From the NCBI GenBank assembly GCA_050084515.1, contig CM114271.1, positions 13,516,001-13,580,000 of the forward strand: a stretch of 64,000 nt of DNA. The letters run 5' to 3'. The position numbers and the translations under genes are program-made. Below, one piece after another: positions 1 through 32,200 of this stretch. The notes under the pieces are model-generated. The model searched no databases. It was not told the origin of the DNA and was given only the letters and a program-made list of their open reading frames with translations. The stretch comes from Blasia pusilla. Lineage: Eukaryota. The first letter of the stretch is position 1; every line of letters starts with the position of its first letter.

Positions 1-1887
1 GCCCGTGCAGTTTGCAGGGAGACTTGAGGGTTCATTCCGAGGGTCGACCACAGCAGTTGCTACTTATTTTGGCACATTATGTTGGCCTGGATATTTCCTG
101 GAGGGGAACGCCAATGCAGAGGATATTCTTGTAGATGATAGTCTTGAGGAGTGGCATGTGATGACGAGCGTGGCTACATCTGATGGCGATACTCCTTCAA
201 ATTTTTGGGGGACGAGCATCGATTTGCAAAGGAGAGCAAAAATTTCGTGAGGAAGGCGTGGAGCCGAGAATATGCTTTAGAGCGAGACGTGACAGAGTTA
301 CCACGTGCACTAGGAGTGGAGACGTTGACACCCTTGGACGTCACACCGATTGTGTGGTAGTATCCCGAGAAGGATGTACCTATACTAGATCTCTTTGGAG
401 GGATTAGTACAGCGTTGGCTGCAGTGTTGCAAGCCGGAGTACGAATACAGCAGTACTTGTATGTTGAGAGTGATGAGACTGCATGTAGAGTCTCATTACA
501 TCATGTGTCGAGACTAGTCCGGAAGTATCCTCAGTTCCTGCCAATGTTTGTAGGTAAGGGATATCAACATGTATTGTCGACCGACATTTTGTTGTTGGGG
601 GCACGAGATCTGGATAGGGTTGGTCCGATACACTTGGTGGTGGCAGGGTGGCCATATCAGGGTCATTCTTCGGCGGGTCAGGGACTTGGTTTGCAGGACC
701 CGAGATCGGCCATGTTTTGGGAGATGTTGCGTGTTCTTTGTCACTTGCAGACTATCCAACGATGTTCTGCAGCTTACATTTTGGAGAACGTCCCATTGTT
801 AGGTAACACTCGAGCCCGAGTGATGGTGAGTGTACATCAGGTGCGGTTGTGGATAGGACCGGCGATGATGTTGGATGCGGCGAGTGTTGGATCACACACA
901 CAACGTCCACAGTTGTGGTGGACAAACCTTTTATCATCCGAGTTATTGAGGCGGACTTATGATGGAGTCCAGAGACCATCACTTCTTACAATGGATGCGA
1001 TCTTGGATCTAGGGCGGCGATCTCAGGTTGTTACTTGTGATGATATACCACCGTTGGCAATGGCCAATCGGGTGGGCCAGCATAGGGCAACATTTCCTAC
1101 GTTGGTGAGTTTCCCGTCATCTCATGCTTTTTGTTAGGGAGGACCAGGCATGATATGGGATGAGCAGGCAGGTACACTGGTGGAGCCCAACGCCGACGAG
1201 CGAGAGCGAGCTATGGGGTTCTCTAAAGGTATGATGGTGGTGCCTATGATGGTAAAGGCATCCTGCAGACAGGTATTGGGTTAGGCTATAGACCTGAACT
1301 ATCTTACTTGGGTGTTCAGTCTCAGTTTGGCCGAGCAGAGATGGATGCGAAAGGCGTATGTGACATTAAGTCCACTTTGCAACGCAGCATCTACCGGGAC
1401 GGGTGAGATATTGGCTGGGGGCGCAATGGTGATGGAGAGGCATCCATGGACTTCATGGGATATGTCACGAGAGCACAAAGAGATGGGAGCTCATTTTGCT
1501 GATGCAAGACATAGTTGAGTGCCTAGAGAGTTGGTGTTTGAGTTGGGAGTGCATGTTGTTGCTCCAGAGGTTGCTAGTCAGCAACCACCACCCTCCTCTT
1601 CTCCAGAGGTCACGAGAGAGACTTCGGAGCCATTGATTGGTCCTAGGTTGACAAGGGCGGAGAGGAGATGAGTGTTGTAGTTCTTGTGGAGATTCAAGGA
1701 TTGTTTTGCATATAGTATGCACGACTTGGGTATGCTAAAGGGTCCAAGGATTCGGATCGAGTTGGATAGTGATACTCTTATCTTCCGACCACCCTACATA
1801 TATTCTGACATGGAGCGAGCCTTGATTCAGAGTAGAAGTGGAGACTTGGCTGACGTTGAACTGGTGGAGAGATTTCTTGGAGAGTAT
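1..1887 (+). mobile_element. Ty3/Gypsy pol fragment, copy A: linker, C5 DNA methyltransferase domain and N-terminal part of RT; degenerate and interrupted at 1888 by an LTR
   Basis: DNMT motifs are followed by the RT start (CFAYSMHDLG..RIRIELDSDTLIFRPPYIYSDMERALIQSR), homologous to the RT start at 9300-9430 (-). Several in-frame stops. Confidence 0.9.
382..1320 (+). pseudogene. Retrotransposon-borne DNMT3-like C5 cytosine methyltransferase domain (copy A); catalytic Cys replaced by Tyr
   Basis: One frame contains motif I ILDLFGGI (382), II YVESD, IV VVAGWPYQG (TAT at 655-657), VI LENV (781-792), VIII TQRPQLWWTN, IX ERERAMGF (~1198-1221) and X RQVLG*AID (TAG at 1282). Another stop at 1135-1137. 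Confidence 0.9.
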
Positions 1888-3251
1888 TGTCACATCTGAG
1901 TAGCCGATAGGCCGAGATCTATCGTGGATGGGGCATAGGAGCCATCGGACTATCTTGAGTGTAACTTTGTCCCACGGTGTCAGATGAGGTTGAGGATAGG
2001 TCCATTATGTCAAGAACGTCATTTTTTATAACTTTCCATTTGAGGTATTTCACAGCCGGATGATTTGTTGACCAGATCACCCGCCCCTGGTAACCTGTGC
2101 GCGGAGGTTATCAAGGGGATAGTTATTTTTAGGGGAAGAGCTTTTAGACTCTTTCCAACCCTATATAAGAGAGGAAGATGGCTTTCCTAAGCCATCTTTC
2201 TCATGTTGGGCCATTGGAGCACCTCTCTTGTATGTGTGTGAGATAGGACTAGGGTGCTAGCATCCGGATTCCTTGATAGCACAGGGTGGGCAAGGCTCGA
2301 TACGCCGATGTAGATTGAGGAGCGGAGTTTTAGGCCAGGTGTGCCGTTTTTACTACTCTTTATTTTTACATGAGAAAGATGTCAGGGGCAGGTGGGAATT
2401 CATTATTTTTATGTAGGCAAGCGAGTTGCTTTGGTGGGGAGCCCATGGAGACGCTGGTTGGCGTTTTGTTTGTCATATTTTCCATGCGGAAGGCCGTGGG
2501 CGGAAGCGTTGTCCATTTTTCTCAGATTTTGCTAGTGCGGATTCATGGGGGATAGCAGCAGGGTGTAGCATAGGTTGTGACGACGGGTGTTCACGAGTGG
2601 ATCGTCGACCGGTGAGCGGTGAGTGTCGGGAAGGCAAGGGATTTCATGGAGGCGGCCGGGGCACGGAGGCGGGCTAGGTTTAGATCGCGGAGGCAGAGGC
2701 GGCCGGAGGCACACCCCATGTAGTTTGGGAGCCTTCGTTTCGGCTCATTTGGAGTCATATTGAGAAACTTACTATTTTAGGTAAGTACCATTTTGAGTAT
2801 ATGATCGACTTTATATTTTTGGTAAGTAGCCCCTTGACCTCCTACATCAGGTCAAGAGCCAAGGAGGTGACTTGGGAGAATATGTTACCATGGAGAGAGC
2901 TTGGGAGAGGGGAGGGATATACCTCAAGGAGAGAGAACTTGAAAGCTCATTCTCTCTTTGTTGAACCTATTGGCATGAGGCGGCGGAGCTATGGTCCCTT
3001 GCCTTATGATTGTAACTCGAGCCTCTCATTAGGAGAGTGGATTTGGTTTGACATGAGAGAGATTGCACACCTTTGAGAGCTATGGTGTGAGATGGTTTAG
3101 AATGAGATTGGATCTTACTTTTTTGGAGATATTTTAGTACTTCTTGTTTCGTTGTTTAGATGCCATGAGTTAGCATGGGATTGTGTGTGTTTGTGTGTGT
3201 GTGTTTGGTGACAGCAATGTATGTTGTGTAGAGATGTGTATGCGCACAACA
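1888..3251 (+). mobile_element. 5' LTR (~1.36 kb) of a Gypsy element nested in the RT of copy A
   Basis: Starts TGTCACATC and ends GCGCACAACA. TATA-like CTATATAAG at ~2161. Homologous pieces at 12328-12543, 17133-17545, 37235-37335, 49139-49751 and 51440-51640; several share the same termini. Confidence 0.8.
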
Positions 3252-5312
3252 ATACGGACCCCGACACGGTTCAACCCTTTCATGGCATGGAAGGGGTTGT
3301 TCCAACATTTGGAGGGTCCTCCGATGGATGACTACATGGAGTTTCGATCACTATATTTAGTAGAGATCAATTCCTAGAGGATGTATTGGGCTCCAGGTTA
3401 TGTGTCCACTAGTGGTCGCGAGGCATATGATGGGATTGTGAGAGGAGAGAGACCCACACCATCAGCTCGGAGACTAGATGGAGAGGAGGGCAGCGAGACA
3501 GGCGATGTGGTAGAGACCTCTAGTGGTAGAAGGCCATCCAACTTCAGTCCCACAGTGGAGTTCTTCCGACAGTTGGGGAAGAGCTACCAGGGTGTAGGCG
3601 CCAACAAGCTAAAGAGTCTATAGGATTTTCAGCGACGATTGGGTGAGAGTCTGAGAGAGGCATTCATGCGCATGAGGAGGCTGATCATTGCTACGTATGG
3701 GGTGATTGAGGCGCCGTCAGTCCAGTATTGGTACGGGGTTCTGGATTGAGAACTACGGAGGAGAGTCCGAGATGCAGTGTTGATTCACTCAACGAAGCCC
3801 ACATTGAAGGTGGTCTTTGAGTTGTCTGAGCGTATTGAGCTCAACATGAGTGAGGAGCACGTAGTGACCGCTGGATTTTCTGGAGAGTCGATGGGTCCAC
3901 GAGCGACGGTGATCCCACAGGTGCCATAACGAGCAACCGTACCACGGAGCGGGCCAGTGTGCTCAGAGAGCAGGCCGAGTACCGTGAGCCTATGAGGCAA
4001 CGACGCGTACCTACATATGTTGCCCAGCAGGGACCGTTGTTTTCTTGTTGGACGTGTGGAGGAGCCCATAGGCAGAGAGACTGCACACAACATGGGAGAG
4101 GACCACGAGCGCCTCCAATTGCTCATGAGCCACGGAGGATGGCCCCACCACAGTACTAGTGTGACTATTGCCACAAATATGGTCACACTAGGGATAGATG
4201 TTTTGATCTTCTTCGAGAGGCACGTCCAGAGGTAGGCCGAGGGCCAGGGGGCGGTTGTCTTGGAGGAGGTTGGAGAGTTCTTCCTGGACATGGTGGTAGA
4301 GGACCACCATTAGCCAAAGGAGATGGAGCAGGAGCACCAAAGCCGGCACTTCTCTCACGCATTGATCAGTTGGAGCAGAGGATTGTTGCCATGACAATGA
4401 TGCAGCTCAAGGAAGGCACGGAGCCATGAGCAGCTAGTGTGGCTCCAACTTTTACCTCTTACCCCAACCTGGGTAAGGATCTCGCTAGTATGGGGTTTAT
4501 GTGTAGTGCAGCTCAGGTTGAGGCAGCTGCAGTGGTGACTCAGGGTGCTCCGAGAGGCACCGAGCCATCGAGAGGTGGAGTTGAGATTGACCCAACGGAG
4601 GGGACCGATGGGGGCCAGGCCAAGGTTCCACAATCATTCATATTGTTGAAGGCACTACACACACCATCGATGATGCCTCGACGACCAGCGCTGCCTACAG
4701 CTCAGGCACATACGTCGACGTCACGAGGAGTTGGAGTGACAACTCCTATGCCAACTGGAGTGGAGTCTGTGTCGACCATAGTGTTGGAGGTGGCCACTAG
4801 AGTAAGTGAGACTCGGCTATTTTCCGCCAAAGAGTTGGAGACGTTGGGAATTGGACCAGCTGAGGTATTCTGGATGGCCTCCATATTGTGCGAGCGTGGA
4901 GAGGTGACTACTTCTTGTTCAAAGGTAGTTGAGGAGATGGTGGACTTGCCCTCAGAGGCGGTGCTCGGGACGTTCCCCACATAGTCATGGCATGCAGCGG
5001 CGGCAAACTTGGTAGATATGCCAGCTCGACCGGCCATAGAGCGAGCAGTGGTGACACCTAGAGTAGTATCACTAGATAACCGAGCTGGAGTATTTCGCTT
5101 GGTTAGTTTGATGGGGATAGTATACCACCCGCAGCGCATCCTACTTGATTCAGGAGCGTAACCCTTGATGTTAGGGGAGGCCGCGTGTTTAGCGTTGGGA
5201 TTACGGAAGGCCGACATTGAGCCTTGTCCTTTCCAGATATAGACCTCGATTGGGGGCGTGTTACCCACGCAGTATATGACTGACAGGAGATAGTTGTCAG
5301 AGTCCAGCCAGA
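3252..5312 (+). mobile_element. Degenerate Gypsy gag (two CCHC zinc knuckles) and aspartic protease, truncated at ~5312
   Basis: CWTCGGAHRQRDC (~4045-4085), a CDYCHKYGHTRDRC-like knuckle (~4160-4200), and protease motif RILLDSGA*PLMLG (LLDSGA at 5141-5158). Stops and frameshifts present. Confidence 0.85.
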
Positions 5313-7237
5313 GGGGGGCTGGTATTCTGGCAGGAGAGAGGAAGAGAGGAGAGTCTCTCTTTTTAAAAAAAAGGGCCAAATCCGCCTCCTCTCTTCAAAA
5401 CTTTTTTACATATTTGAAATTTTTGATTGCTTTCAAATTCATGAAATCTTTAGAAGAGAGTAGATAGTGGTCCACATTCGGGCCTTAAGAAACTTCCTTT
5501 TTTCAGGGGGAGAGAAACAAGTAGACATCATAAGACCACTACAAACATTTTTCCATCACTCTCCATGTGAGCCAAGTTTTTTCACATTGCGTGTCTCGGT
5601 CTACAGTAAGCTCTGCCTAGGGATTTTTTTTTTTTAGGCCTATTGGCAGAGATTACTACTAGAAGTAGCAATCTCATCTCAATGAAAGGTTCAAATAAAG
5701 ACCAACTTTGTGAAATGTGAACACATGAGACGATAATTAAACCAAAAGATTGTTAGTTGTCTGGAGTAAAGAGAAACTGATGTCCCTTCATTCAGATCCT
5801 AAATCCGATAGACCGAGATGTTGCACCCCTCCCAACCCGTCGTAATTTTATAGGTTCCAACTCTTGCAACCCTTCGGAATCAGCCCCCTTCACTTTTGGT
5901 CTACCAGGGAAAGAGTCCGACCACTCAAGCAGCCAACCTGTCGGAATCCGACAGCTTGCTTGGAAATGGTTGAAAAGTTGCAGTGGTCAAAAAGTGAAAA
6001 GTTGCAACCCGTCGGAATCACACAGGTTGCAAAATAAACATTTTGAGTAGCTAGACGAACACAATCCACAAGTCCAACAAAAATTTCAGCGAACTTTTAC
6101 AAACACCATTATCGGTTGAAAAAATCTCGTTCTTTATTACCTCCGAAGGAACCTCGGAAATGTACATTTGATCTAGTCTATGATTTCATTCAGCCTCGTC
6201 ATCTACAAATTTACTCCTAACTCTCCTAGGTTCCTATACAAAAGGAATGTCCTGGGATACAAGTGGCTCCTTTGGCCGATTGTAGATGGGGATCGAAAAC
6301 ATTTGCGGTCGAGCCTTCCCCCTAGGTACACCATAATGGTCCCATGTAACCTGATTTGAGTCCCACCGCCTTCCTCGGCAGTAATTCTTCTACGCTCTGC
6401 AATGTGGCACCCATCCAATATCAATATGTGCTCCGTCCTTGGAAATACCATGATGGCAATCCCACAGATAGTAGGAATCCAACACGTCTGAGAGAAGAGA
6501 AGAAGCCTACGCCTTGTTTGACGATACTAGGGGAAGGTGCCAAAGTGAAGAAGCCCGCCAGAATGCCTCTTAAGTTGGACCAACAGGGAAAGAGTCCGAT
6601 CACTCACGCAGCCAACCTGTCGGAATCCGATAGGTTGCTTGGAAGTGGTTAAAAAGGTGCAGTGGTCAAAAAGTGAAAAGTTGCAAGCCGTGGAAATCCG
6701 ACGGGTTGCAAAATAGAAGTCCTCGGAGTACATAGACGATCACATTCGAAAAGACATAAAAGATATTCAACAAACTTTTAGAAACACCATCATCGTTCGA
6801 AAAACTCTTGTCCTTTATTAAATCCGAAAGAAGCTCGGAACTGTACATTTCATCTATTCTATGAATTCTTTTGCCCTTGTTATCAAATAAATCCCTACTC
6901 CAAACGCTATGATCAAATAAGGGTCCTTGAGTTCTTTGAACTCACTCGTCATCGTCCGAGAGCTCTTGCAAAATTACTGTCGGCCTTGCCCTCCCAATTT
7001 TTGGAATCGTGGGAAGTGACGATGGTGTCACTACCAATGGTGGGTCTGGAACCCGAGCTCTCGGCTTCGAAGGAGAGTTGTACGCCCCAACTAGCCTGTC
7101 GTAATCTGCCTTTGCCTCCTTGCAAAGGTCAAACATTTGTTGCCTTCCCTCAGGGCAGAGAATGTTCCTGCCACTCTGCCAGGCGCCTCTGATACTCGCC
7201 CCTGAAAGGCCCACTAAGTCGAACACCAAGTCACCCA
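5313..7237. mobile_element. Unclassified, probably non-autonomous DNA-transposon-like repeat with an internal ~290 bp direct repeat
   Basis: The start GGGGGCTGGTATTCTGGCAGG and the following ~500 bp recur inverted at 45505-46386. Direct repeat ~5903-6190 vs ~6580-6865. It interrupts the protease on the left and the integrase on the right. Right boundary approximate. Confidence 0.6.
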
Positions 7238-10200
7238 ACGCCTTGTCACACAAGACCTGAAACTCACCTTGAAACTCTGTACCCTGGTCGGTCAGCACTT
7301 CAGCTGGTGCACCAAAATGACTAAGCACTCTATCAATAAATGCGTACGCCGTTCCCTCACTTGCCTTGTCAGGTAATGCCACCAACTCAATCCACTTGGA
7401 GAAGTGCTCCACCATCACCAACACATATCGATGATGTTGTACAGTCAATGGTAACCGTCCCGCAAAGTCCACACTCCAACCGTAATCCAACCCCATAATA
7501 GGCAAGGGGTGTAATTGTGGTGTAGGGGCATTGAATGATGCCCTCACTCGGTCACAAACCATACAACGTGACACCAACTGCTGCACCTGAGTATGCATGC
7601 CACGCCACCAATACTGACCAAGGAGTAAGCTACACGTACGCTTTACCCCAAAATGTCCCAACTCCTCATGGGCATGTCGCACAATGCGCTCTCTCTGAGC
7701 CAAATGCGGCACTACTCATACTCTACCATCCTCCCACACACGAAGAATATGTGTTCCCTCCAATCGATACCTCTTAGCACGTTGAAGAACACAGTCTTGC
7801 TCCTTGGCACTCACTATGCCTCACACCCTATTGGTCCGTAGGAACTCCAACACCAACGCATCATCATGAATATCACGCTGATCCGTACCACCATCTCCAA
7901 CCTTAGAATCTGAAGGCTGGCCATCTACCCTCTGACTAGAGTAAGATGTCATGTGGTCCTCCATACTAGAGTCCATCCCTAAACAACTTAAAAAGGCGGA
8001 TGCATGCCAACCTGGCACCATCTCCTCATCAACCTCGCCATGCCATCTAGCCCCAGTTGCATCCTCTTGGCTAGTACATGGGTTCCTACTCAACCCATCA
8101 GCATCAAGGTTGGCAACTCCAGGTCTATGTACCACCTGGAAGTCATACTCATGTAAGATAAGAGCCCACCGTGCAAGCTTCCTTGTAAGCTTGTCAGACT
8201 CCATCAACTACTTGAGCGGCTGGTGATCAATAACAAGGGCAAACTGTGTGCCAAACAAGTAACACCTAAAGTGTGCCACAGCCCACACTATTGCCAAGCA
8301 CTCTTCCTCATATGAACTATAGCTCGACTCCGCTGCATTATTCGAACGACTTGCATAGGCCACCACAAACTCCATGTGCTCATCATCATGTTGTGTCAAC
8401 ACCGCTCCAAGTCCCAACCTACTCCAAAAAGTATGTAACTGAAATGGGCGCCCTCTGATAGGTCTCCTCAAGATAGGCGCCGCCACCAATTGGGCCTTAA
8501 GCTCCACAAAAGCTCTCTCCTGATCATCTCCCCAGTGCCACTCTTGATCTGATTTCAACAATTGGTTCAAAGGCTTTGCCATAGCACTAAATCCCTTCAC
8601 ATACCTCCGATAGTATTTCGCCAATCCCATAAATGCCCGAACTCTACTCACATCTACCGGACGCGGAATAAGTGCAATAGCCTCCACCTTTGCTTGCTGA
8701 ACTTCCAAACCACCAGGATAGATCACATGACCCAAGTACTCAACATCCTCATGGAAGAACTTACACTTTCCTGGATGCAAACGTAGACCATGAGCTTTCA
8801 ACCGCTCAAACACCATCTGCAAATATATCTAATGCTCCTCCACCGTGTTACTCAACATCAAGATATCATCAATGCAACATCGAAAAAAATCCAACCCTGC
8901 TGGGATCCTGTCCATCAATCTCTAAAACTCGGCAGGTGCATTCTTCAACCCAAAGGGTAAGAATTTCCACTTGTACAAACAATCCTTGCCATGAGAGTTG
9001 ACACCCCAAAATGTTGTCTTGGCCTTGTCACTCTCCCGAATCGGCAATTGATGGTATTCTGCCCGAAGATCCAAAGTACTGAAAATCTTTGCCTGTCCCA
9101 CCACATCAAAGATCTCCTCAGGTGTAGGCATGGCATACCTAACGGCCTTGGTTTGCCAATTGATAGAACGGTAATCTCCACACATCCGCCTATCCGTGTA
9201 GTTTCCATGCATATCCTTTTTAGCAAGCATGATAGTGGCTGATGTATTCTGTCCATGCGACAACTTCACTAATCCAACCTCCAAAAGGTCCAACGTCCTA
9301 CTCTGAATCAGGTCCCTCTCCATATCACTATATCGGTAGGGACGACGGAAGATTGGCGTATCACTAGCCAAATTAATCCGTATACCGGGTCCAACCAAAG
9401 CACCCAACTCCTTCATGCTAAAGGCAAAACAACTCCTATAAGCACGTAGGAACTATGTCAAGCATCGCTTCTCACCTCCCGTAAGCTTGGGCCCAAGTAA
9501 TGGCTCCCAAGTCTCCTCCACTGGCACACTAGAGGGAGAGGACGATGCCATTGGCTGCTACGCAACCCCCTCACAAGATGGTACACCCTTGGCTACACCA
9601 TCATTTGAGCAAATAACTCCTCCACCACATTGAGCAACCAACTCCACATGCCCAGCGATTACATCCCATTTACTCCAAGGATGCAAAATATTACTCTCCT
9701 CGCCCCCAGTCGATGCCTCTACCGTCCCGGTACCCATCAAGCTCATTACAAGGGATGGAAGACCCACAGACATAGTCTGAAGTCGACGCTGTTCGGCCAT
9801 ACCAAGACTCAAAATCCAAGTCAAACAATTCAGGTCCATGGCCTGACCCAACACATGACGTCGTGAAGCCTCAGAAATGGAAGCAACCACTGTCACACCA
9901 GTAGCAAATCCCATCGCACGCTCTCTCTCATCACCGTTAGGCTCCACCAACTGTCGCACATGAGAATCCCATACAAGCCCGGGACCACCTTCCGTGTAGG
10001 CATGTGACGAGGGAAAACTCACAAATGTGGGTAGTGCCATCCTAGGCTGGCCCACACGGTTCACCACTGCCATGGGTGACCGATCAATAACCCTCACCAT
10101 CGAGAAAGTCGCCCCAAGATCCAAGATACTATCCTTTGTAAAGGCAAGGATCCCCCGCCTTTGCATCATATGCTCGACGTAGAACCTCCCTAGGTAACAA

Positions 10201-10960
10201 GTTTGTCCACCACAAGCATGGACAATGTGCACGCGAGCCAACTCGCGCTACATCCAACAACACCGCTGGTCCAATCCAAGACCGCACCTCATGAACACTC
10301 GCCATCATCCAGGTCCGAGTGTCACCCAACAATGGAACATTCTCCAGAATGTAAGTTGGAGCACGTGTCTGATGAACCTGAAGATATCTTAACATCCTTA
10401 ACATCTCCCAAAACAATCGAGACCTAGGGTCGTGTAATCCCTCACCACGACCAGCACGTGTATGACCCTGACATGGCCATCCAGCAATCACCAAATCCAC
10501 AGGACCAACCCTCTCAAGGTCCTGCGCCCCCAACAATGCAATGTGTGATGGCAAAGCACGCTGGTACCCACGAATAGCTGATGGCGGAAACAACTCAGGA
10601 TATCTCCGCATCAACTGACCAATATGTCGGGATGAGACTCTCTAGGCCGTCTCATCTCGCTCCACATACACGTATCTCCGCACATGAATACCGGCCTGCA
10701 ACACTGCAGCCAAACCAATGCTAATCCCACCAAAGAGATCTAACACACAAATGCCCTCCGGCGGATACTGCCATACAATGGGTGTAGTATCCAAAGGGGA
10801 TAACCCAACTGGACCAGAAGTAGGAGTCCGCCGTGGGGCCTCCTCTTCCTCGTGAGGTATAACAACCTCACACCAAACCTCCTGCACTAAACTTGAGATG
10901 CATAAAGCGCCTAACACCTCTCCGAAAAGCACCAAATGAGCTACACCATTGTGTACATTG
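7238..10960 (-). mobile_element. Ty3/Gypsy pol, copy B: DNMT-RT-RNase H-integrase; degenerate, integrase truncated, no recognisable gag/PR upstream
   Basis: RT motifs RMCGDYR, FSTLDL..YHQL, LPFGLKNAP and CIDD (from YIDD, ~8866-8877). RNase H motifs YASRS..ECLAIVWAV..DHQPL and ARWAL..ADGLSR. Integrase HHCC (HEELGH..CMVC), WSVDF and LTDQGTEF. RT-RH-INT order is Gypsy. Confidence 0.95.
9810..10755 (-). pseudogene. Retrotransposon-borne DNMT3-like C5 cytosine methyltransferase domain (copy B); catalytic PCQ retained
   Basis: Motif I VLDLFGGI, II YVERD, IV GPVDLVIAGWPCQG (Cys codon 10471-10473), VI YILENV, VIII RAHCPCLWWTNL, IX ERERAMGF, X RRHVLGQAMD. One stop (10642-10644) and a frameshift near 10150. 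Confidence 0.92.
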
Positions 10961-11024
10961 GCATAGTTAAGAACTCAGCACTTAAGCGTCTTCCAGGCAC
11001 AATAGCCCAAAGATCGATGACCAG

Positions 11025-12326
11025 TTATGCAACACTCAAATCACAAATCTTGCAAAAATTGCCTCACGCCCAACCAAGCAAGCTTGCTTGCTTGCTCCTT
11101 GCTCCTTGCTCCCTTGCTCCTTACTCCGCCTCTCACGCCCACTCGCCCCGAGCTACCACGAGTTGCCTCGAGTTGCCTCGAAGTCTCAAAACGCCGAGAA
11201 TTGCTCGAGACATGCCGCGTTCGCCACGCTTCACCATGCGTTTCTATGGAGAGAGGCCCAACCAGGGTGCCCCCAACGGGATAGGCGTCTCCAACAATGA
11301 ACGAGTCACCAACCAACCAGCCCCTCCGATCTGCTGTCCACCATAGCCAGACCTTGAGCTAGTCCACAAAATTTTGATCAGCAATTACTTCACAAATACT
11401 TGACCAAAATTGAATTTGTTTCAACCATAATTCAATTGACCACCATAACTATCTCTCCACAAAAAATCAGCTACAACCAAGCTCTGTGCTCCGAACTAAA
11501 AATCAGACAAACTTGTTGTCCATACACCTCCAAAATCGTAAATCCGACAGCGCTTCCGCCCAGATTCATGCACGTAGAAATCCGCAACGCTCCACACACT
11601 CAAGCAGATAGCTTCACATGAGATCACAATACAAGTATAAATAGGAACCTCTCACCCAATCTGGATGAACTTCAACAGAGCTTCCACACTCCAAGCTCTC
11701 CACATTAGAAAACCGTCGAACACGAACCAGAATCTTCAATCCTTGATAACTTCCAACTCCCTTGACGAAATCCGGCGATCTAAAGCGCGTTGGAAAGCTC
11801 TCAGCAAGGCGCTTCTTTCCCAACCAACCATGTACCAGATTCCAAACTAAAAAATAGGCCACAAGCCATGAAAATCCACGGCTAAGTACACAATCAGCCC
11901 TAACCAGATCCTACTGATCCACAATCGAAGCTACCATCGATCTACTCTAGTTTTTTGAGAGAAATCCGTGAAAGACCTATTGTCATAAAACAAGTATAGA
12001 ATCACATACAATGGAGCCAAACCCACTCCACGATGGGAGAATCTACGTCGAAGCTTGCGGGAAACACCATAGCCAAGAGCTCTACTCACTACCAAGGCTA
12101 ACTCCCATCGCAACACGCTCAACTCAAAGAACTGACTGTTCTTTGGGTGCACTCCACACTATATCATCCAACCTAAGAGCGGGCCCTACAAGGAAAGTCA
12201 CCCCCAACTGAGTAACCCCAACCCTATGTATGAAACCGCATCTCGACCTAGCCACTACGGTCCTACATAAGGTATGGCCTCTACTAGCACACTATACTCT
12301 ACGACATAATCCGTATGGTCATGACA
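11025..12326 (-). mobile_element. LTR-like segment of a second family, abutting an LTR fragment of the first family
   Basis: Begins TGTCATGAC on the minus strand at 12326, exactly where homology to LTR 1888-3251 stops. Non-coding. The other end is uncertain. Confidence 0.4.
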
Positions 12327-12327
12327 A

Positions 12328-12543
12328 ATGAGCTCTCAAGCTCTCTCTCTCTTTGAAGTATATCCCTCCCCTCTCCCAAGCTCTCTCCATGGTAACCTAT
12401 GCTCCCAAGTCACTTCCTTGGCTCTTGACCTGATGTAGAAGGTCAAGGGCCACTAACCAAACATATAAAGTCGATCATATACTCAAAATGTTACTTACCT
12501 AAAATAAGAAGTTCCTCAATATGACTCCAAATGAGCCGAAACA
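12328..12543 (-). mobile_element. LTR fragment (same family as 1888-3251)
   Basis: Reverse complement closely matches ~2737-2950 (GTTTCGGCTCATTTGGAGTCATATTGAG...AGCTCATT). Confidence 0.85.
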
Positions 12544-14500
12544 AAGGGGAAACCTGCTCTCATATGTTTCTCAGGGCCTCAACAAGTCATCCTTGACCTA
12601 CTGAGCATGTCTTCCACTACTCATGAAGGCGCTCTACTAGATCTCACCGATCTATCCTAAAAGACTTGACACGGTTGAGGTGAAACCGCTCAAACTTTAT
12701 AAGGTGTTCTTCAACCCTATGGAGAGAGAGAGATAAGTCCCACCCTTACATTGATTACATCGGCACCTCACCCTTTTTATACCCAGCTTACAAGCCAAAA
12801 CCTGCTCCCTTCGCCACAATTTATAATCATATGCTAGTACTCACTGCGGATTATCAAGGGCCAATCTACGTCCGAGAGGAGCTTGGTGGTATCATGGTTG
12901 CTCTAATGAACATACCAACCCAAATAAATGAACAAGGTATTTCGAATGAGATTCCACACAGAGCCACGCATAGAGATGAATATATGTAGATGTAAGTTTT
13001 ACTCTTTCTATCATCATTAAGGAAAGAAAACAAATGGGGAAAAAATATGATGGGTTTTGTGTAGACCCCTGAGGAGATCTATTAGATTGCTAATTTTTAC
13101 CGGATCTTTGGGTTGAGAACAAAGTGTTTCCCTCACACCGTCCTCCGTACGCAACCCTACTGTAATAAAAAATTCCCTACATTCACCTAATTGTTTTTTC
13201 ATATGGGTCTCTCTTTACACAGATGGCCATTTATTCTACTATGATGTAAAATAACTTCATATGTTCTCATGCAGAAGTCTGGTTTCTTTCAAATGTTATA
13301 GAGCCACAAAAAAGGCCGTCCATCATAGAATTCCAGCTCCTATTGTCACTGGCATATTACAAAAAATTAAACCAAAATGTTTAAACGGAATGTTATGAGT
13401 TTTCTTTTCTGTCCCATACACCCAATTGCCTACACAACATGGGCATGCAAACCCTCCAAGAAATGTTCCACTTTTGGAACCTATACAAATCTTCTGGTTG
13501 CATACATACATGTAATAGGATCTTATCCTATATGGCTAACTGGGTATATATTTTCTCGTCCAAGGTCAAGAGTGTACAAGCATCTTAGATGGATGCTTGT
13601 ACCTCTCATCATGTACCATGATGATCCTATATTATGATGACCACATAGCTGATACAAGTATTGGTTCTGTTGTAAGGAGCAAGCAGTGACAAAAATGGTT
13701 GAATATCGAACCGTATAATCAGTTTGTTTTCACACAATTTAAAAGAAAACACGCACTTATGCTCTATTGGAAGAAGTACTTTTAGCAATGTTCATAGCCT
13801 GACATATGACACATCAAAACTCATGCTACGGATCGGACTCGTTGCCATACACCGGCATCACGACATATGTTTAGGCAACATATGCAAACTCTACCTGACA
13901 CTATTCTACGACTTGAACGAATGCATACTAAGTTCCCTAGAGTTACAAATTCCCAAGTATTGCAATATTGAAGAATGACCTTCACTATCAAGCCACCAAT
14001 AGAACGCGCATATTCAACCAGGGCAAATGCCTTCTTGACCATAGGAGAATCCTCCCTAGGGAGCATTCCCCATGCAGCATGACAAATATGAAGGGTGACT
14101 TTTCGAAGTACCCCAAGCATTAGCCATGCTATTAGTGCTCCTCGATCCTCCCTCCACATAATAATGTTTATAAATCCTACATACACAGAGCAATCTTCTA
14201 GACGGAACAACCAATTTATAGTCTGCCTTTGTCGCCTATTTGGGATCCAATAACGCTTAGAGTAAGCATGAAAGTAACAAATATTTGCGCTTGCAGATTC
14301 TTGGAGGGCAAGGGCATGGTCTAAGAGACTAGTAGGCCTACTCATGCCAAAAATCTTGACCTTCACTTCAAAAGGGAGGCTCCTCAATCGAGCCACAAAG
14401 TACCATGATATATTTTGAGCCATATTATATCGTTTGATGGGTGATACCTGATACCATCCACCATCATTATGAACGTTATTTTATTTTAACAATTTATGCA

Positions 14501-14618
<118 letters not shown>

Positions 14619-15876: not shown

Positions 15877-16740
15877 GTGGTTAACTTTGTGCTTGAGTTT
15901 ACCCATGTAGCTAAGGCTAATTAGGAAGGTTCTGAAGAAGAGTTATTACAGGTCTTTCCTGGCCTCTTGAAGAAACAAGCCAGGCAATGGTATGACGGGC
16001 TTGAAGCTGAGGCTAGAGAAACTTGGAAGAGGATCTTGCAAGCCTTCTTGAATGAATTCTGGGACTTGGAATTTGAGGACCGTCTTCTAACGAAGCTTCG
16101 TGACTTAAGAAGAAGGAAGAAGGAGACCCTGAGGGAGTACACTCAGAGATTCCGAAGCTTGGTGAACAAATTAGAGCACACCACTACCCCTCAATTGGTA
16201 GATTGGTTTGTGTCGGGACTTTCAAAAGAAATGGACCGGTACTGTCGCCGGGGCCAACAAGACTCGATGGAAGCAGTCATTGCATCCGCGGAAGCATACG
16301 AAGCATCTGAGAAGTCCCGTAAAATACGAAGACGGTGCCATTAACGACGAGGCTCTTCGCCGACCAGCTCTTCGTCCGAGGATGAAATTCCTCAATAGAC
16401 AACGAAGCTTCAACGGACAGTTCACTTGAGTCCTCGGATTCCGGGGAAGACTCCAAAGCTAAGGGAAAGCGAAAAGTGAAGAACCATAAGAGTTCCTCAA
16501 GGCATGGGCGAAAAGCCAAGTCAGCAAAGCAGGTTAGTAGGAAATCTACAAGCCCCGCACGCAAGCCAACAAGGGAAGCGGGGAAGTCTGCCATTGAGGA
16601 GTTAACCAAGCAAATGGTTGAACTGAAAGTGCACTGGCGGCCCAGTAGGACCCCAAAAGGAGACCATGTCTAATTAAGGCCAACCGTGTCGTGCAATGCC
16701 TACGGGAACCAAGGGCATACTGCACAAGAGTGTCACCTTC
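15877..16740 (+). mobile_element. Retrotransposon gag fragment (different family)
   Basis: ARQWYDGL..TWKRILQAFLNEF..ETLREYTQRF..WFVSGL resembles a retrotransposon gag domain. Degenerate knuckle CNAYGNQGHTAQEC at ~16690-16733. Confidence 0.8.
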
Positions 16741-26470: not shown

Positions 26471-28025
26471 TATCGGGAGGGGAGAAAGTGAGAAGAGAGG
26501 TGTGTTGTATTACGACTGTGGTGACTGCGATCGAGAAGGGGATTCGGAAGGGGTGCAACATCGGAAGCAGAGGTTGGACGGAATGGATTTGAAGGTGTTG
26601 CAATTGATTGGTTACTGCAGCAGGAAAGGCTATGGATGTCGGAGTGGGTGAATCGCGGGAGATTGGAGTCTTTTCTGGTGAGCCGGAGAGATCCAGAGCT
26701 TGGTGTTCTGGACGTCTGAGTGGTGAAGGACAGCTGAGAGGAGTGCAATAATGTGTCCGAGTGGCAGAGGGTTTTAGCGAGGTGGAGCGGAGGTTGCGAC
26801 GGTGGTATGGTTGGATTTCCGAGATAGGGATGGTGGAACAATTTGATCGGATTTTGGAGCTCTGAGAAGCTGCCTTGTGCCACGGCATCCAGGTGAACTT
26901 AAAGCACAGGATTTCAGCATTGTTCATCTCGGAAGGGAGGTTTCGCTTGTGTGTTTTCTGTAGAAAGTCTCCATTTTGTGGGGCGATGTTGCAAAATTGG
27001 AACTGTGTTGAAGATCATTGGTGATTGTAGCGGGAGTCGGTAGTGTAGGTTCGTCGTGCAGGCCTTTGGGAGAAGGAAATTTAGTAACTCAGAATGGGGT
27101 TTGGCGTGTGTAGCTGCATGTAGGGTTCGGGAGGACTTTGAAGATGGACCTTTCACAGTGGGAATCTATGTCAAACTGAAGCATTGTGATCGCGGCCATC
27201 TGCGAAGCTCGCAAAAGACTTCCCAATTGATTTAATCGACAGGCGTTTGCAGTATCGCTCCAATTTTTTTTTCCATTTAGCTGTACACAAAGAGCCGATG
27301 ACATTAGAGCTCAGGAAAGAGCATATCAGAGCTGCGGAGCTGCCAGGGAAGGTGATCTCTTCTCTAGATCACGAAGTACGCAATTGGTTGGTTTGGATCT
27401 CAAGCACGTGGATCTCATCGTTGACTGTTTTTCGCTAGGTCAAGCGAAGCAGACAGGAGAATGTAAAAAGCCGTGTTGTACAGTTGATTTAGGAGGAACT
27501 TGGAAGCGTGCTTTTGAGCGTTTCCCCTTTTCAGATGTATTTAACCATTGCGAATTATGCTATATAAGTTATTTCACTGGATTTCAGCGGGTTGAAGAAA
27601 CCCACTATCATGCTTATCTTAGAACCCTGTCTTCCATTCTGATTTGAAGTAGGGCAGTTGGCTCTGGTCTCTCTAAGTCCTGCCACCTGAAGCTGGGGGG
27701 GGGTGACTGGAAGTTCATCTAGCTGCACAAATGATCAGTTAGGGATCCCAATTGCAAAATTCCTGATATTTGGAGCATTAAGTTGGTTGCGCCTGCAAGA
27801 GTGGATTGGGAGTCTGATATTGCTTACGTAAGATAGACTTTGATGTTCGTTTGGCACTGCAAGTTTTGTTACACTGAAACTCTGCATTGCATACATTGTT
27901 CTTTCCACGTTTCTCATCAAAGAATATTTCTGGTGTCAGATATGTTGCACAATTGATGCTTACTCTGCCAAGCAAAGAATCTCAAACGGGCTTGGAGGGA
28001 AAAGGGTGCATGAGATCTTGGGAAA

Positions 28026-29232
28026 ATGTCTAGTGACCGCAGTGAACGACGATCATTCCTGCATTCTCTCTCAGATACGGAATCTGATGCAGAACAGGGG
28101 TGGACAGAGGAGAGCTTATCTTCAAATCAGAATGGAAGACAGGGTTCTTCAAAATCGGGGGCTGCGGTCCCCGAGAGCTTTGAGTTGAAGCAATGGGGTA
28201 GTGATGAGGAGCAGAAACAAAAAAGATTACCACCCCCAGAGGAATCAGACGTCAGAAGAGCCTCTGTCTTGCAGGATGGGGAAACTGGACATGGAAATAA
28301 TGAGAAGCCATCAGTGCATTTGCTCTCGTCCTACCCAGATGGTGGATCAGAACAATCAAAGGAGGGTACTTCCGATGGGTATAGGTACAGACCACAAATT
28401 GTAACACGTCATTCTCCAGTTTCAGATGACAATTCAGATGAAGGAGCTCACAGTGATTCCGATAGGGGAAAAGAAGGAAGCAGCCACAGTGATAGGAGGT
28501 CATTGCTAAGGCCCCAGCGAGAGGATGGACAGGGTGAGACTTCCAGAGAAAGAGCATCTGTGAGTCGAGGAAGGCGATCTTATTACCCAGCTGCAACATC
28601 AGATGTTGATTTGGAATCACAGATTGATCCTGCAAGAGATAGGGCAAAAACATCCAGCAGGCGAATATCCCGGATTATCTCACCAGAGCCTGATATAGAA
28701 TCGGATTTTGAAGCTAGGGATTCTGATGTAGACAGAACACCACGTCACCCCACACTTCAGAGAAGGCCCTCAATTGCAGCTCAAGTGGGAGAAAGGGTTC
28801 CCCCGGAGTGGGTTCTTCTACTGCTTGGGTGCTTCCTGGGCCTTGCCAGTGGTCTCAGTGTTGTGACATTCAATCGAGGGGTGAGCAGATTCGCATTTTC
28901 TAACAACCATGTACCTTGAAATAGTTCTTGTAGTTCTTGCACCTGTGCAGAAATTCAGTGAGTTAAGTTGCATCAAGTGTGTGTGCAGGATTGTTAGTCC
29001 ATAAACTTGTGCTCTTGGGATGCCTACCTGCCTTATCTTTTTCTGTGTACTAGTTACATGACCACTTGCTGCTTCAACTCCTTGGATGGTTTTTAGTTGC
29101 ACTTAGCTATTCACTTCTTCTTTAGTAGAGTTATAACAGGACAAAAATGTCAATGCCTTGATTTACCATTTTCTAATATGCCATCATAGGTTGTTTATTA
29201 CTCCATTTGATCAGGAGACTCCTGGAAAGGTA

Positions 29233-29292
<60 letters not shown>

Positions 29293-32200
29293 TAATGTAT
29301 TGTGTATATATATGTATATATGTATATATATATATACATTTATGTATTTGTGAACTGTTTGCTCCAATACATTTGTGATCAAGTTTTTGACTACTCACGA
29401 CTTTTTTTGCTGGTGTTTGCTGTATTTTTACCAGGTTCACTTGATACATGATTTGGCCTGGGCAGGAACACCTCATGAAGGAGCAGCATGGTTGCGGCTT
29501 CAAAAACTCATTGATATTTGGCACAGGATCATGCTTATTCCAGTGGTTGGAGGTGTGGTTGTTGGGATGATGCATGCAATTGTTGTAGTTATAGATCAGG
29601 TCAAAGCATCCAGGCCACCACGAAGGCATAGTATTGATTGGCTAGCGGGAACAAAGCCAGCACTCAAAGCTTGTCAGGCGATGGTGACTTTGGGAACAGG
29701 TTGCTCACTTGGACCTGAAGGTCCAAGTGTTGATATTGGGAAGTCGTGGGCTCATGGTCTCGCTACAGTGATGAAAAATAATCGAGAAAGAAGAATTGCG
29801 CTGGTGGCAGCCGGTGCAGCAGCTGGCATATCTGCAGGTTTGATTACTTTTCTATCAATAGGGGATATCTGTCAGATGCTTGACGTTATATTGCCACATT
29901 GTAAGGATGCACTGTAATAAGATTCAATGCAGCTTCAGTAAAGTAAGTGAGGATAGGGGATTCTTCACCTGTCATCTTCCAAGATGGTTCAAGCCACTGT
30001 ATTGCTGTCAGACATGTTGTATACGGGACAGATGTAAACTACTTCTCTATACTCTGTGTCATTCATATCTCCAAAGGAGCATAGTCGGGTAGAGTGTATT
30101 TTCACCTTTATGATGGATAGGATATTTTAAGATGATGGACATGATATGATACTTAGATTGTTCTTTCTCAGTAGTGGATGCTTCCATGATTTGTGCATAC
30201 ATGGAATGTTAAATTAATACTTCGTCTTAATTGGACCTCGAAGTCATGAATGAAACCCATGCGTAAAGTGTCGCATGAGCAGTTTTTCTTTTTGCATCTA
30301 AAGCTTGACGCAATTGTAACATCTGCCTAGAATTGGAATTAGACATGTGAAGTATTGTTGCCTCACTGTCTGTACATGTTTTTCCTAACTGACTTCAGGT
30401 GAATCATTGTTGCAGGATTTAATGCACCTGTCTCAGGATGCTTTTTTGCCATTGAGACAGTGTTGAGGCCGCAACATGCAGAAAATTCTCCACCTCTGAC
30501 AACAGCCATGATTATTTTGGCATCTGTGACATCATCTACAGTATCGCAAGTCCTTTTTGGAGAAACTGCAGCTTTCACAGTACCTACCTATGAATTACGC
30601 TCTGCAGCTGGTACATACGTTCTATCCATAATAAACTTCTGTTAGTTCATTGCATTCAGTCAATCTGTATTAGTACAAAGTTCCAGTGGAAATTCCACTC
30701 CAGGTTTTTGACTGGAACAACCAGAACACTCAGAAATTGCTACCATTTTTTTGTCTTTTTGTCTGTATTGTCTTTGCTAGCTGACTTTTCCGCATGATTT
30801 CTTGCAGAACTTCCACTCTATCTGCTGTTGGGTGGTCTCTGTGGTGTTGTCAGCGTTATATTCACTCGCATGACAGCTTATTTTTCGGATATGTTCGAGT
30901 TTCTAAGGGATCGTATCGGCATACCTGCCACTGTAACTCCTGCAATTGGGGGCCTTGTAACAGGTTTGATTGCACTAAGGTATCCAGGTGTGCTATATTG
31001 GGGTTTCACAAATGTGGATGAAATATTGCACTCAGGAAAATCAGCAACTGCTCCAGGCCAGGGTCTGTTGATACAGTTAATCTGTGCAAAGGTTTTTGCC
31101 ACTTCCTTTGGTAAAGGGTCCGGACTGGTAGGTGGTGTATATGCCCCCAGCTTATTCATAGGAGCGGCAGTTGGTTCCGTATATGGTACAATGGCAGGAA
31201 AGGTGATCAATGCTGCCATGCCTGGTCATGACACTGTCGCACATCCTCAGGCGTATGCATTGGTATAATCATTTGATCCTTGTTTTCAGAAGCTTTGTGT
31301 ACACTCAGTTTTCTGCTTGTCAATTCAATATGCTCCATGTATGTGTACTTGTCTATAGTGAAAGATTTGTTGAGGTACCAGTCTTGGGCTATGAACAACT
31401 GGATTCATCAGATGTGTTAGAACAGGGTTATCTAGACTGTAAAAGGGACTTGGTCGAGCCTATAATAATGAAAAGATTCCCTTGTGAGATTGGCATGGAA
31501 TGCAGTTGTTGATGCCTAAGACATTCCTCAGGTATCAGTAGCATAGCATGTCATAATATTTGCTCCTTGTGTTTGGAGCAATTCATTTAAGAAGAAATCT
31601 ATTTCCTGTTGTCTCCTATGTGCAGGTGGGAATGGCTGCACTACTTGCAGCTGTGTGCTCAGTTCCGCTGACATCTGTCCTACTGCTTTTTGAGTTGACG
31701 AAAGATTACCACATCCTGCTTCCTCTCATGGTATGTTGTGCAGACCTCTTGGAGATTCCGCTAGAGACAGAGGAGGTCCCACAAATCATGGCGTAACTTG
31801 TATCATGTCTGCTTGATTTATCTCAGTGACAATTCCTTTCAACTTGAGTCTCACAGTGAGGTGGAGAAAGAAGAACCTTGTGTAAATGTTATTGTATAGA
31901 TTTTTCATTTCCTTGGTTCTGGATCCGTCTGAGAACTGGCTTGAGCGTGCAATGCTGAATGCACGTTCAAGCCAATTTATGGGTCTAGTAACCATATCAT
32001 CAGAGATCTAAATTCTAGTCAGATTTCATGGAGCAGCAAATAAGCAGTCCAGGACTTGAATTGGACAAATATTCATCATTGAACTTCCTTGCTGTTTAGG
32101 GGAAGCTTTGAAGCTACCGGTAAGGTGTTTCTAGCATAGAATTGGGAAAAGATTTGTCATACTATCCTTAAGTATGATGTATTTATACTGTCAATCCACT

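Follow-up and report, generated by a model that had tools for sequence, protein, structure and literature searches.

In a stretch of 64,000 nucleotides from Blasia pusilla (contig CM114271.1 of assembly GCA_050084515.1, positions 13,516,001 to 13,580,000; hereafter referred to as the window), we identified on the minus strand, at 12326-7236, a defective copy (copy B) of a retrotransposon family of the Ty3/Gypsy type, which encodes a cytosine-5 (C5) DNA methyltransferase (DNMT) of the DNMT3 type. We assign a probability of about 0.85 to this reading, with the anatomy of the whole element and its proposed working included. The methyltransferase is followed on the same strand by reverse transcriptase (RT), RNase H (RH) and integrase (INT) (10974-7236). 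This agrees well with the initial annotation of the locus, which was made from the sequence alone and described an intron-free series of C5 methyltransferase motifs, in order, upstream of RT-RH-INT; the limits proposed there, 7238-10960, fit the homology limits at 7236 and about 10950. Since cytosine methylation is the main weapon of the host against transposons, a transposon carrying its own de novo methyltransferase is paradoxical.

The methyltransferase of copy B is split over three stop-to-stop pieces (for details see Table 1), along which the C5 methyltransferase motifs follow in the proper order, motif I (FxGxG), motif IV (whose PC contains the catalytic Cys), motif VI (ENV), motif IX and motif X. 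In the Pfam search, the central piece (10641-10129) matched PF00145 (DNA_methylase) with E 2.2e-9 (37.6 bits versus a gathering cut-off of 22), and the outer pieces, 10974-10642 and 10247-9558, each alone matched no Pfam family. Downstream (3') of the methyltransferase and on the same strand, RVT_1 (E 6.6e-8), RT_RNaseH_2 (2e-30), Integrase_H2C2 (1e-15) and rve (9e-12) were identified, together with RT_RNaseH. The region 10247-6944 forms a single reading frame interrupted by stop codons alone, so that RT-RH-INT continues the frame in which the methyltransferase ends; pieces one and two of the methyltransferase are displaced from it by one frame, the frameshift lying near 10141. The segment 10880-7236 is colinear for more than 3 kb with 16 metagenome loci (nucleotide identity, 78-80%), and copy B shows 66-70% amino-acid identity to Marchantia proteins; its methyltransferase is 81% identical to that of protein P0196 over 214 columns. 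The locus is a nest of broken repeat fragments, which might suggest that a host DNMT3 pseudogene or a bacterial contaminant has come to lie beside a Gypsy fragment by chance and at this locus only. Such a neighbourhood is extremely improbable, because the same order and frame are found in a second copy within the window (copy A) and in the 16 loci colinear over more than 3 kb, the same arrangement is shared by proteins from Sphagnum, Closterium and three genera of liverworts, and the methyltransferase lacks introns and shares its frame with RT; both candidates were rejected on these grounds. The initial annotation had named the lack of a PF00145 match, or a DNMT-RT adjacency confined to this locus, as fatal to its claim; PF00145 was matched and the adjacency recurs in other genomes, and thus neither was the case.

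By sequence comparison and by predicted fold, the enzyme is nearest to DNMT3A/B among the methyltransferases of solved structure, and its motifs are non-permuted. When the family protein P0007 alone was compared with all sequences in PDB, the matches were DNMT3A (2e-7), HhaI (0.012) and tobacco DRM (0.013). A profile of seven relatives gave DNMT3A (7e-20), DNMT3B (6e-18), tobacco DRM (1e-11) and DRM2 (2e-9), and further down HaeIII (2e-7), HhaI (2e-6) and DNMT2 (1e-4), with no match to DNMT1 at E<=0.01. The DRM enzymes are thus the second-best solved relatives (1e-11 to 2e-9), but the similarity covers motifs I-IV alone and maps to the C-terminal half of the DRM chain (profile 83-211 against chain 227-349); this is the known DRM permutation, whereas the element domain is colinear with DNMT3A, and the identity as DRM was therefore rejected. 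An AlphaFold model from 34 relatives (mean predicted local distance difference test score, 82; predicted template modelling score, 0.80) was used as the query for Foldseek, and among the matches listed up to rank 50 all were DNMT3A/B/C chains, the best with E 7.5e-18, a template modelling score of 0.83 by target length and about 21% identity. In the alignment of 34 sequences, whose identity to the first row is 26-61%, neither the catalytic Cys nor the Glu of ENV varies. Pfam detected no PWWP, ADD or other reader domain in the proteins of the first open reading frame (ORF1), which gave only DNA_methylase and hints of Gag and protease (PR); according to the text of a 2025 survey, many DNMT3s are devoid of companion domains (PMC12344493). 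The Pfam, PDB profile, fold and family-protein data support the earlier proposal of a Ty3/Gypsy element with a non-permuted DNMT3-like enzyme between PR and RT.

Copy A, which is missing from the initial annotation, was found through an inverted match to copy B, with 67-70% nucleotide identity between the two. Its open frame 361-1137 (258 codons) carries motifs I to VIII and matches PF00145 (E 5.1e-7, 29.9 bits), and the catalytic PCQ is replaced by PYQ; by tblastn it matches proteins of Marchantia and Calypogeia. Between copies A and B, the ratio of nonsynonymous to synonymous substitution (dN/dS) is 0.25 over 211 aligned codons, with dS at 1.27, near saturation, indicating that purifying selection acted on the methyltransferase domain during the divergence of the two lineages.

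The whole element, as read from metagenome loci, is about 9.1 kb in length and consists of repeat A (about 345 bp), a 1.1-kb leader, ORF1 for Gag-PR-DNMT, a UAG or UAA stop, ORF2 for RT-RH-INT in the same frame, and a B-A-B repeat array. Repeat A (about 340 bp) is present at both ends of L058, L011, L034 and L064, the two being 8.7 kb apart (10.6 kb in L064). A repeat B of 113 bp lies on both sides of the 3' A, both copies being present in six loci, and is absent beside the 5' A. All three elements for which both ends are available have TG...CA ends and a 4-bp duplication (AAGG, TCTC and AATC). The family has the Ty3/Gypsy set of domains, i.e., CCHC, D[ST]GA, RT, RH and INT, of which copy B retains RT-RH-INT only; in place of two identical long terminal repeats at the ends, the arrangement is A ... 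B-A-B, which we take to be the split direct repeat of Ngaro/PAT-like elements (DIRS order). On inspection, neither a recognizable tRNA-complementary site after repeat A nor a purine tract before the 3' A was seen. The locus L037 is nearly intact; its three open stretches share a frame and encode Gag with CCHC, the methyltransferase and RT-RH-INT. The 4-bp duplications at split-repeat ends are new as far as our searches reach.

Against this whole element, copy B is a dead, defective fragment, or a fossil, of its family. Its A repeat is 72% identical to that of L058, L011 and L034, and at 12326/12327 the reads of other copies exit the window with a consensus that represents the B-end/A-start junction of the metagenome elements. 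The match to the L058 leader is limited to 11818-11787 and the homology restarts at 10880, corresponding to L058 position 5614; the missing gag-PR amounts to about 2.45 kb in L058, and no gag or PR was matched by tblastn within 10975-11959, where the DNA depth remains at 600-1020. At the other end, copy B is cut off at 7236 inside the integrase core, to the left of which the reads of other copies continue with a different sequence, and the B-A-B 3' end is absent; within the window, blastn detected no repeat pair around copy B, the 5' A being its sole terminal repeat. Besides the conserved stop at 9560, there are seven stops in the two frames read, six of them private and in-frame, and the stop at 10131 is a consequence of the frameshift. 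Set against 16 relatives, C to T is involved at 9455, 8924, 8831 and 7718, the change at 8210 is G to A, and transversions are found at 10644 (A to T) and 7823 (C to G).

A stop codon between DNMT and RT is conserved in the family. Methyltransferase and RT are in one frame in 34 of the 48 hit pairings, from which 29 same-frame copies (27 loci plus both window copies) were aligned, with L006, L018, L043, L064 and L065 left out because they were gapped, doubtful or duplicate, and pairings with a frameshift excluded as well. One column carries a stop in 27 of the 29 copies, and the next most frequent stop column in only 8 of 29. Of the two without it, copy A has CAG at the site, and L061 has two nearby stops instead. 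Using a 90-nt nucleotide probe, the site was reached in 48 sources (47 loci plus copy B), and all 48 have a stop (TAG in 34, TAA in 14). In the main subfamily TAG or TAA is followed by CAA CCC, and the other contexts are TAG CAA CCA (L037), TAG CAA CTA (L063 and L065) and TAG CAG CCA (copy B); thus four sources fit UAG-CAR-YYA exactly, and the other 44 show TAG or TAA, then CAA (TAA in L049 and L064), then CCC or CTC. UAG-CAR-YYA is described as the tobamovirus readthrough consensus, and the Gag-Pol of murine leukemia virus (MuLV) as being made by reading through the gag terminator, in the text of PMC3159437. Fifteen non-Marchantia ORF1 proteins of 1228-1451 amino acids start with Met and all contain GWPCQ and ENV, with CCHC, D[ST]GA and motif X each in 14 of the 15; these proteins, as well as Marchantia P0005, P0006 and P0008, stop about 110-150 residues past motif X. 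In the gene models spanning the junction (Marchantia P0004 and P0009, Sphagnum fallax P0026), the stop-bearing stretch is left out like a predicted intron, and hence these models look like annotation artefacts of a two-frame element. Since the stop is present in all 48 copies and the ORF1 proteins end there, the enzyme ends the Gag-PR frame and is not inside pol. In this respect the initial annotation, which placed the enzyme within the pol polyprotein, is to be modified: the adjacency of the domains holds, and the conserved stop separates the enzyme from RT. ORF1 would then encode Gag-PR-DNMT, with RT-RH-INT produced via readthrough, as we infer from conservation and context of the stop. The conserved stop, and with it the position of the enzyme at the end of the Gag-PR frame, are new as far as our searches reach.

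In order to estimate abundance and transcription in this host, whole-genome shotgun (about 1/100 of the reads sampled) and RNA runs of the same species were mapped to window positions 1-14400 at 85% likeness or more. The shotgun depth (both mate directions) was 1060-1720 over 7201-11040, 600-1590 over 11041-12480, 90-240 over copy A and about 950-1030 over a Gag-PR fragment of a third element, and in three flank bins of 12961-14400 it was 0.66 (12961-13440), 6.2 and 19.6. Taking 0.66 as single copy, the copy-B subfamily comprises roughly one to two thousand copies, a rough figure whose yardstick is a single 480-bp flank bin, which counts among the points against our reading that are gathered below. 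In three stranded RNA runs, the depth over 7201-11040 was 33-141 with the first mate on the plus strand and 0-9.6 on the minus, and the bias was opposite over the element fragments on the plus strand; with the usual library type, these opposite biases represent sense transcripts in both cases. In one run (X19), 49 reads exit the window at 10889; translated and read against P0007, their consensus gives the canonical pre-methyltransferase linker, which suggests that the expressed copies retain coding sequence lost by copy B. Many molecules in two RNA runs (25-26 molecules) begin at 12167, about 160 nt inside repeat A, possibly the 3' end of family transcripts within the 3' A copy. The high copy number and the transcription of the family in this host are new as far as our searches reach.

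The family is distributed beyond this host. A word-indexed search with the copy A frame gave 28 proteins, mostly Marchantia polymorpha gene models of 1000-1330 amino acids, together with Calypogeia fissa, Sphagnum and further assemblies. In the exhaustive profile search, 10,417 cluster representatives were matched at E<=1e-3, 2,009 at 1e-10 and 409 at 1e-30, with many proteins of 1,000-3,400 amino acids among the best 150; no named reference DNMT3, DRM or Klebsormidium protein was among the matches of the two profile searches (a set of 5.8 billion sequences). The named hosts are Marchantia polymorpha, M. paleacea, Riccia sorocarpa, Calypogeia fissa, Sphagnum tenellum, S. troendelagicum, S. fallax, three Closterium strains and Scenedesmus sp. 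PABB004, and the only dinoflagellate matches were distant ones of Prorocentrum (E 1e-10 to 5e-14). A scan of metagenome contigs gave 70 loci, and the best segment of the L037/L063 subfamily is 53-54% identical to P0007, which heads the query alignment. That liverworts, Sphagnum and Closterium harbour the family is new as far as our searches reach. A scan of IMG/VR gave one weak locus (L001 10001-10177, 38% over 64 residues, E 1e-5), which is probably an unrelated viral or bacterial C5 methylase.

When 325 proteins were classified by blastp with the domain pieces of L037, 162 contained the methyltransferase (MT) alone, 51 were RT-RH-MT-INT, plus partial forms, and 26 were GAG-PR-MT, plus PR-MT, MT-RT and GAG-MT-RT-RH-INT forms. 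By Pfam, P0044 is CCHC-DNMT-RT-RH-INT, and P0037, P0040 and P0047 are RT-RH-DNMT-INT with a PHD finger after integrase (P0040 also with a Tudor domain). The latter belong to a sister clade (P0037, P0040, P0047, P0111 and P0297-P0303), in which RNase H and integrase are separated by the DNMT3-like domain; the 'pol' of the chlorophyte Scenedesmus sp. PABB004 is a named member, and this clade, too, is new as far as our searches reach. We built a FastTree phylogeny of the 232 methyltransferase domains covering at least 260 profile positions (93 of 323 being left out as short). It is midpoint-rooted, carries local support only and contains no outgroup, none being long enough to pass the filter. On this tree the two architectures are set apart by a single change; every one of the 41 PR-MT-RT rows falls inside a clade of 102 rows (support 100), and the window copies are in a sub-clade of 32 rows with Marchantia and Calypogeia. 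A 2112-residue protein (P0320) with a Copia-type RT (PF07727) matched the methyltransferase profile with E 4e-21, in agreement with a remark on Copia elements with DNMT3 in the survey text (PMC12344493).

The working of the element may then be as follows. Most ribosomes would stop after DNMT, yielding the enzyme in Gag-like amounts as the tail of Gag-PR, and a minority would pass the leaky stop to make the fusion with RT-RH-INT, from which the protease would release the parts. The enzyme, through the catalytic Cys (PCQ) and the ENV glutamate, might add 5-methylcytosine (5mC) de novo to the double-stranded cDNA of the element or to its new insertion, with a possible benefit to the element.

Several observations weigh against this reading. 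The sole Gypsy-borne DNMT3 tested in print, that of Klebsormidium, gave no methylation in yeast, a result that the authors describe in their text as inconclusive (PMC5890265). The placement beside DNMT3 comes from a comparison with PDB chains. The RNA reads with at least 99% likeness to the window number only 35 of 4591, 51 of 4879 and 58 of 4701, indicating that the RNA stems from other copies. The commonest stop context, TAG CAA CCC, is not the canonical YYA. Further points are the CAG of copy A at the stop site, the fact that most of the 48 copies belong to one subfamily and are not 48 independent witnesses, and the frame that is open across the junction in the distant lineages P0044 (2188 amino acids) and P0024. 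The last three would also fit one uninterrupted Gag-PR-DNMT-RT-RH-INT polyprotein, with the DNMT/RT stop as decay inherited from a dead master copy. We consider such a polyprotein quite improbable, because the stop is found in every one of the 48 copies, including the diverged L037/L063 subfamily, with the next stop column far behind; the fifteen complete ORF1 proteins and the three from Marchantia end at the stop, and the bridging gene models of Marchantia and Sphagnum leave it out; and a dead master unable to make RT is hard to square with about a thousand transcribed copies and the dN/dS of 0.25.

An ATG lies 6 nt past the stop in the main subfamily (TAG CAA CCC ATG), leaving room for reinitiation, and an ATG follows the stop in copy B, too. 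Together with the common context ending in C, not A, this would fit termination and reinitiation at the ATG, or else the splicing out of the stop, as the route to ORF2. Either route seems to us on the whole unlikely, though worth keeping in mind: the L037/L063 subfamily has GTG instead of ATG, the zero-frame relation is kept and is needed by neither, and no joint across 9560 is found among the 15 best-supported of 236 joints. The enzyme itself might no longer methylate DNA, acting on RNA as DNMT2 does, or binding nucleic acid or serving as a structural part of Gag-PR, a position that would adjoin the packaged RNA. Neither KnitGypsy-Dnmt3 of Klebsormidium nor SymbioLINE-Dnmt methylated DNA in yeast, and RNA methylation is raised for the LINE in the text of that report (PMC5890265). 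We regard a role other than DNA methylation as unlikely, since the catalytic Cys and ENV are invariant, sequence and fold are DNMT3-like with DNMT2 far behind (1e-4 versus 7e-20), and human DNMT3B also failed in the same yeast test, as stated there (PMC5890265).

Table 1. Features of copy B, of the related fragments in the window, and of the complete metagenome element L058 (coordinates of L058 are those of its own contig).
Feature	Position	Strand	Remarks
5' terminal repeat A of copy B	11960..12326	-	starts TGTCATGACC at 12326; end near 11960 approximate
Leader remnant of copy B	10975..11959	-	about 1 kb; gag-PR missing between leader and methyltransferase
DNMT3-like C5 methyltransferase domain	9561..10974	-	broken by TAG at 10644-10642 and frameshift near 10141
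Methyltransferase piece 1	10974-10642	-	motif I VLDLFGGIS
Methyltransferase piece 2	10641-10129	-	motif IV GWPCQG, motif VI ILENVP
Methyltransferase piece 3	10247-9558	-	ERAMGF, RRHVLGQAMD
Conserved in-frame stop with context TAG CAG CCA	9552..9560	-	90-nt probe, 48 of 48 copies
RT-RH-INT	7236..9551	-	RT about 9200-8720, RNase H about 8534-7900, integrase zinc finger and core 7700-7245
Copy A, diverged second copy	2..1890	+	PR-DNMT linker end, methyltransferase, RT start; cut at about 1890
Gag (CCHC)-PR fragment, third related element	3252..5317	+	matches residues 34-694 of Marchantia P0008
L058 repeat A1	about 1679-2017
L058 Gag start	3159		leader about 1.1 kb
L058 methyltransferase	5466-6876
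L058 stop	6940
L058 RT-RH-INT	up to about 9370
L058 repeat B1	10238-10350
L058 repeat A2	10350-10691
L058 repeat B2	10693-10805

The third related element lacks a 5' repeat and anything past PR, and directly follows a repeat end at 3251, where a B-like end was noted at 3182-3251 (+). The segment 12671-12327 (-), which adjoins copy B, is the start of another repeat and also begins with TGTCA. The segments 12327-12671 (-) and 1888-3251 (+) belong to another high-copy repeat, with a DNA depth of 880-2940 and termini at 12671 and 3251, and read joints connect 3251 with 12671, with a change of strand, and also lead from 3251 back to position 1888. This may be a second family that has an identical B-end/A-start junction, or else tandem or circular forms. 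The coding strand of all three element fragments (window 1-12000) is rich in G+T, the GC skew being +0.25 where the elements are on the plus strand and -0.17 to -0.28 where they are on the minus, and the AT skew matches. Elsewhere in the window we noted a host gene with introns at 28014-31268 (+), with matches to the voltage-gated chloride channels (PF00654, E 1e-12 and 7e-23) in two exon-sized frames, a fragment of a PIF1-like helicase at 55289-55816 (+) (PF05970, E 7e-12), presumably Helitron-like, a separate retrotransposon Gag at 15925-16344 (+) (PF03732, E 7e-15), and a long dinucleotide microsatellite at 14504-14615.

The question of what the enzyme does has become more testable, since many gene models are found in Marchantia polymorpha, which is genetically tractable, and the family is present in Sphagnum and Closterium as well, and since at least one host has it in high copy number and transcribes it. 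To judge from the conserved stop, the enzyme may be produced together with Gag and not with RT, a point of relevance to the place and time of its action. A living, streptophyte-wide lineage of split-repeat Gypsy elements (Zygnematophyceae, liverworts, peat mosses and probably Klebsormidium), with an active DNMT3 at the end of Gag-PR, produced in Gag-like quantity by virtue of a leaky UAG of tobamovirus type that restrains RT-RH-INT, and with the enzyme as a real source of de novo 5mC in hosts which, like the present one, have about a thousand transcribed copies, is a tentative proposal which we hold to be possible and rather less than probable; if it is true, a transposon enzyme would add de novo 5mC to its own cDNA and perhaps to host DNA.

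Elements of this kind, Gypsy with DNMT3 and DIRS-like repeats, were published in 2018 for Klebsormidium, and the present finding widens the kind. The initial annotation referred correctly to the report of de Mendoza et al. on retrotransposon-borne DNMTs (PMC5890265), the text of which does not contain 'liverwort', 'moss' or 'Marchantia'. As far as their texts go, the 2025 survey (PMC12344493) and a 2026 preprint (10.64898/2026.05.21.726589) refer to streptophyte Gypsy-DNMT3 solely by citing de Mendoza et al. In literature searches, and in PMC5784723, PMC6453930, PMC12344493, 10.1101/2021.02.12.428880 and 10.64898/2026.05.21.726589, we found no report of a transposon-borne DNMT3 for land plants, although supplements and figures may hold one. 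The roles proposed in the text of de Mendoza et al. are self-methylation of the cDNA, escape from foreign-DNA recognition, protection against deaminases, and self-restraint (PMC5890265).

The domain is like DNMT3A/3B/3C and the plant DNMT3 in its best sequence and fold matches, its non-permuted motifs I-X and its short target-recognition region, and differs from DNMT3A/3B/3C in the low identity (about 20-22%), the lack of introns and of a reader domain, and the fusion behind a retroviral-type protease; the host gene MpDNMT3b of Marchantia is described as a separate locus, Mp5g09290 (10.1101/2021.02.12.428880). The stop resembles the tobamovirus-type leaky stop and the MuLV gag-UAG-pol junction (as described in the text of PMC3159437) in the in-frame UAG, the CAA or CAG and the YYN that follow, and the position at the border between an abundant and a rare polyprotein, the exact CAR-YYA being present in copy B, L037 and L063. 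It differs in the CCC of the main subfamily and in the protease and methyltransferase lying upstream of the stop, and readthrough is here a prediction.

With regard to the repeats, the order A1-internal-B1-A2-B2 is that of Ngaro/PAT-like elements of the DIRS order, which use a tyrosine recombinase, whereas a DDE integrase, TG...CA ends and 4-bp duplications are found here. SymbioDIRS-Dnmt3 of Symbiodinium shares a retrotransposon-borne Dnmt3-type domain, which in that case methylated CG de novo in yeast, according to the text of PMC5890265, but it is a DIRS element with another recombinase in another host lineage. The nearest known system is KnitGypsy-Dnmt3 of Klebsormidium nitens, which is compared here by its published description. 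As described there, its Dnmt3 domain is intron-free and not rearranged, Ka/Ks is below 0.2, the copies are few and activity could not be detected in yeast, and the legend of Fig. 4 gives it a DIRS repeat structure together with Gypsy domains (PMC5890265). The present family agrees with it in the intron-free, non-permuted Dnmt3 domain within the coding region of a streptophyte Gypsy element, in the retention of the key residues, in the low ratio of substitution (0.25 here) and in the DIRS-like repeats, which fit A ... B-A-B. It differs in its hosts, which are liverworts, Sphagnum and Closterium, in a copy number of the order of a thousand as against a few, and in the stop after DNMT and the 4-bp duplications, both of which go unmentioned in the text on the Klebsormidium element (PMC5890265).

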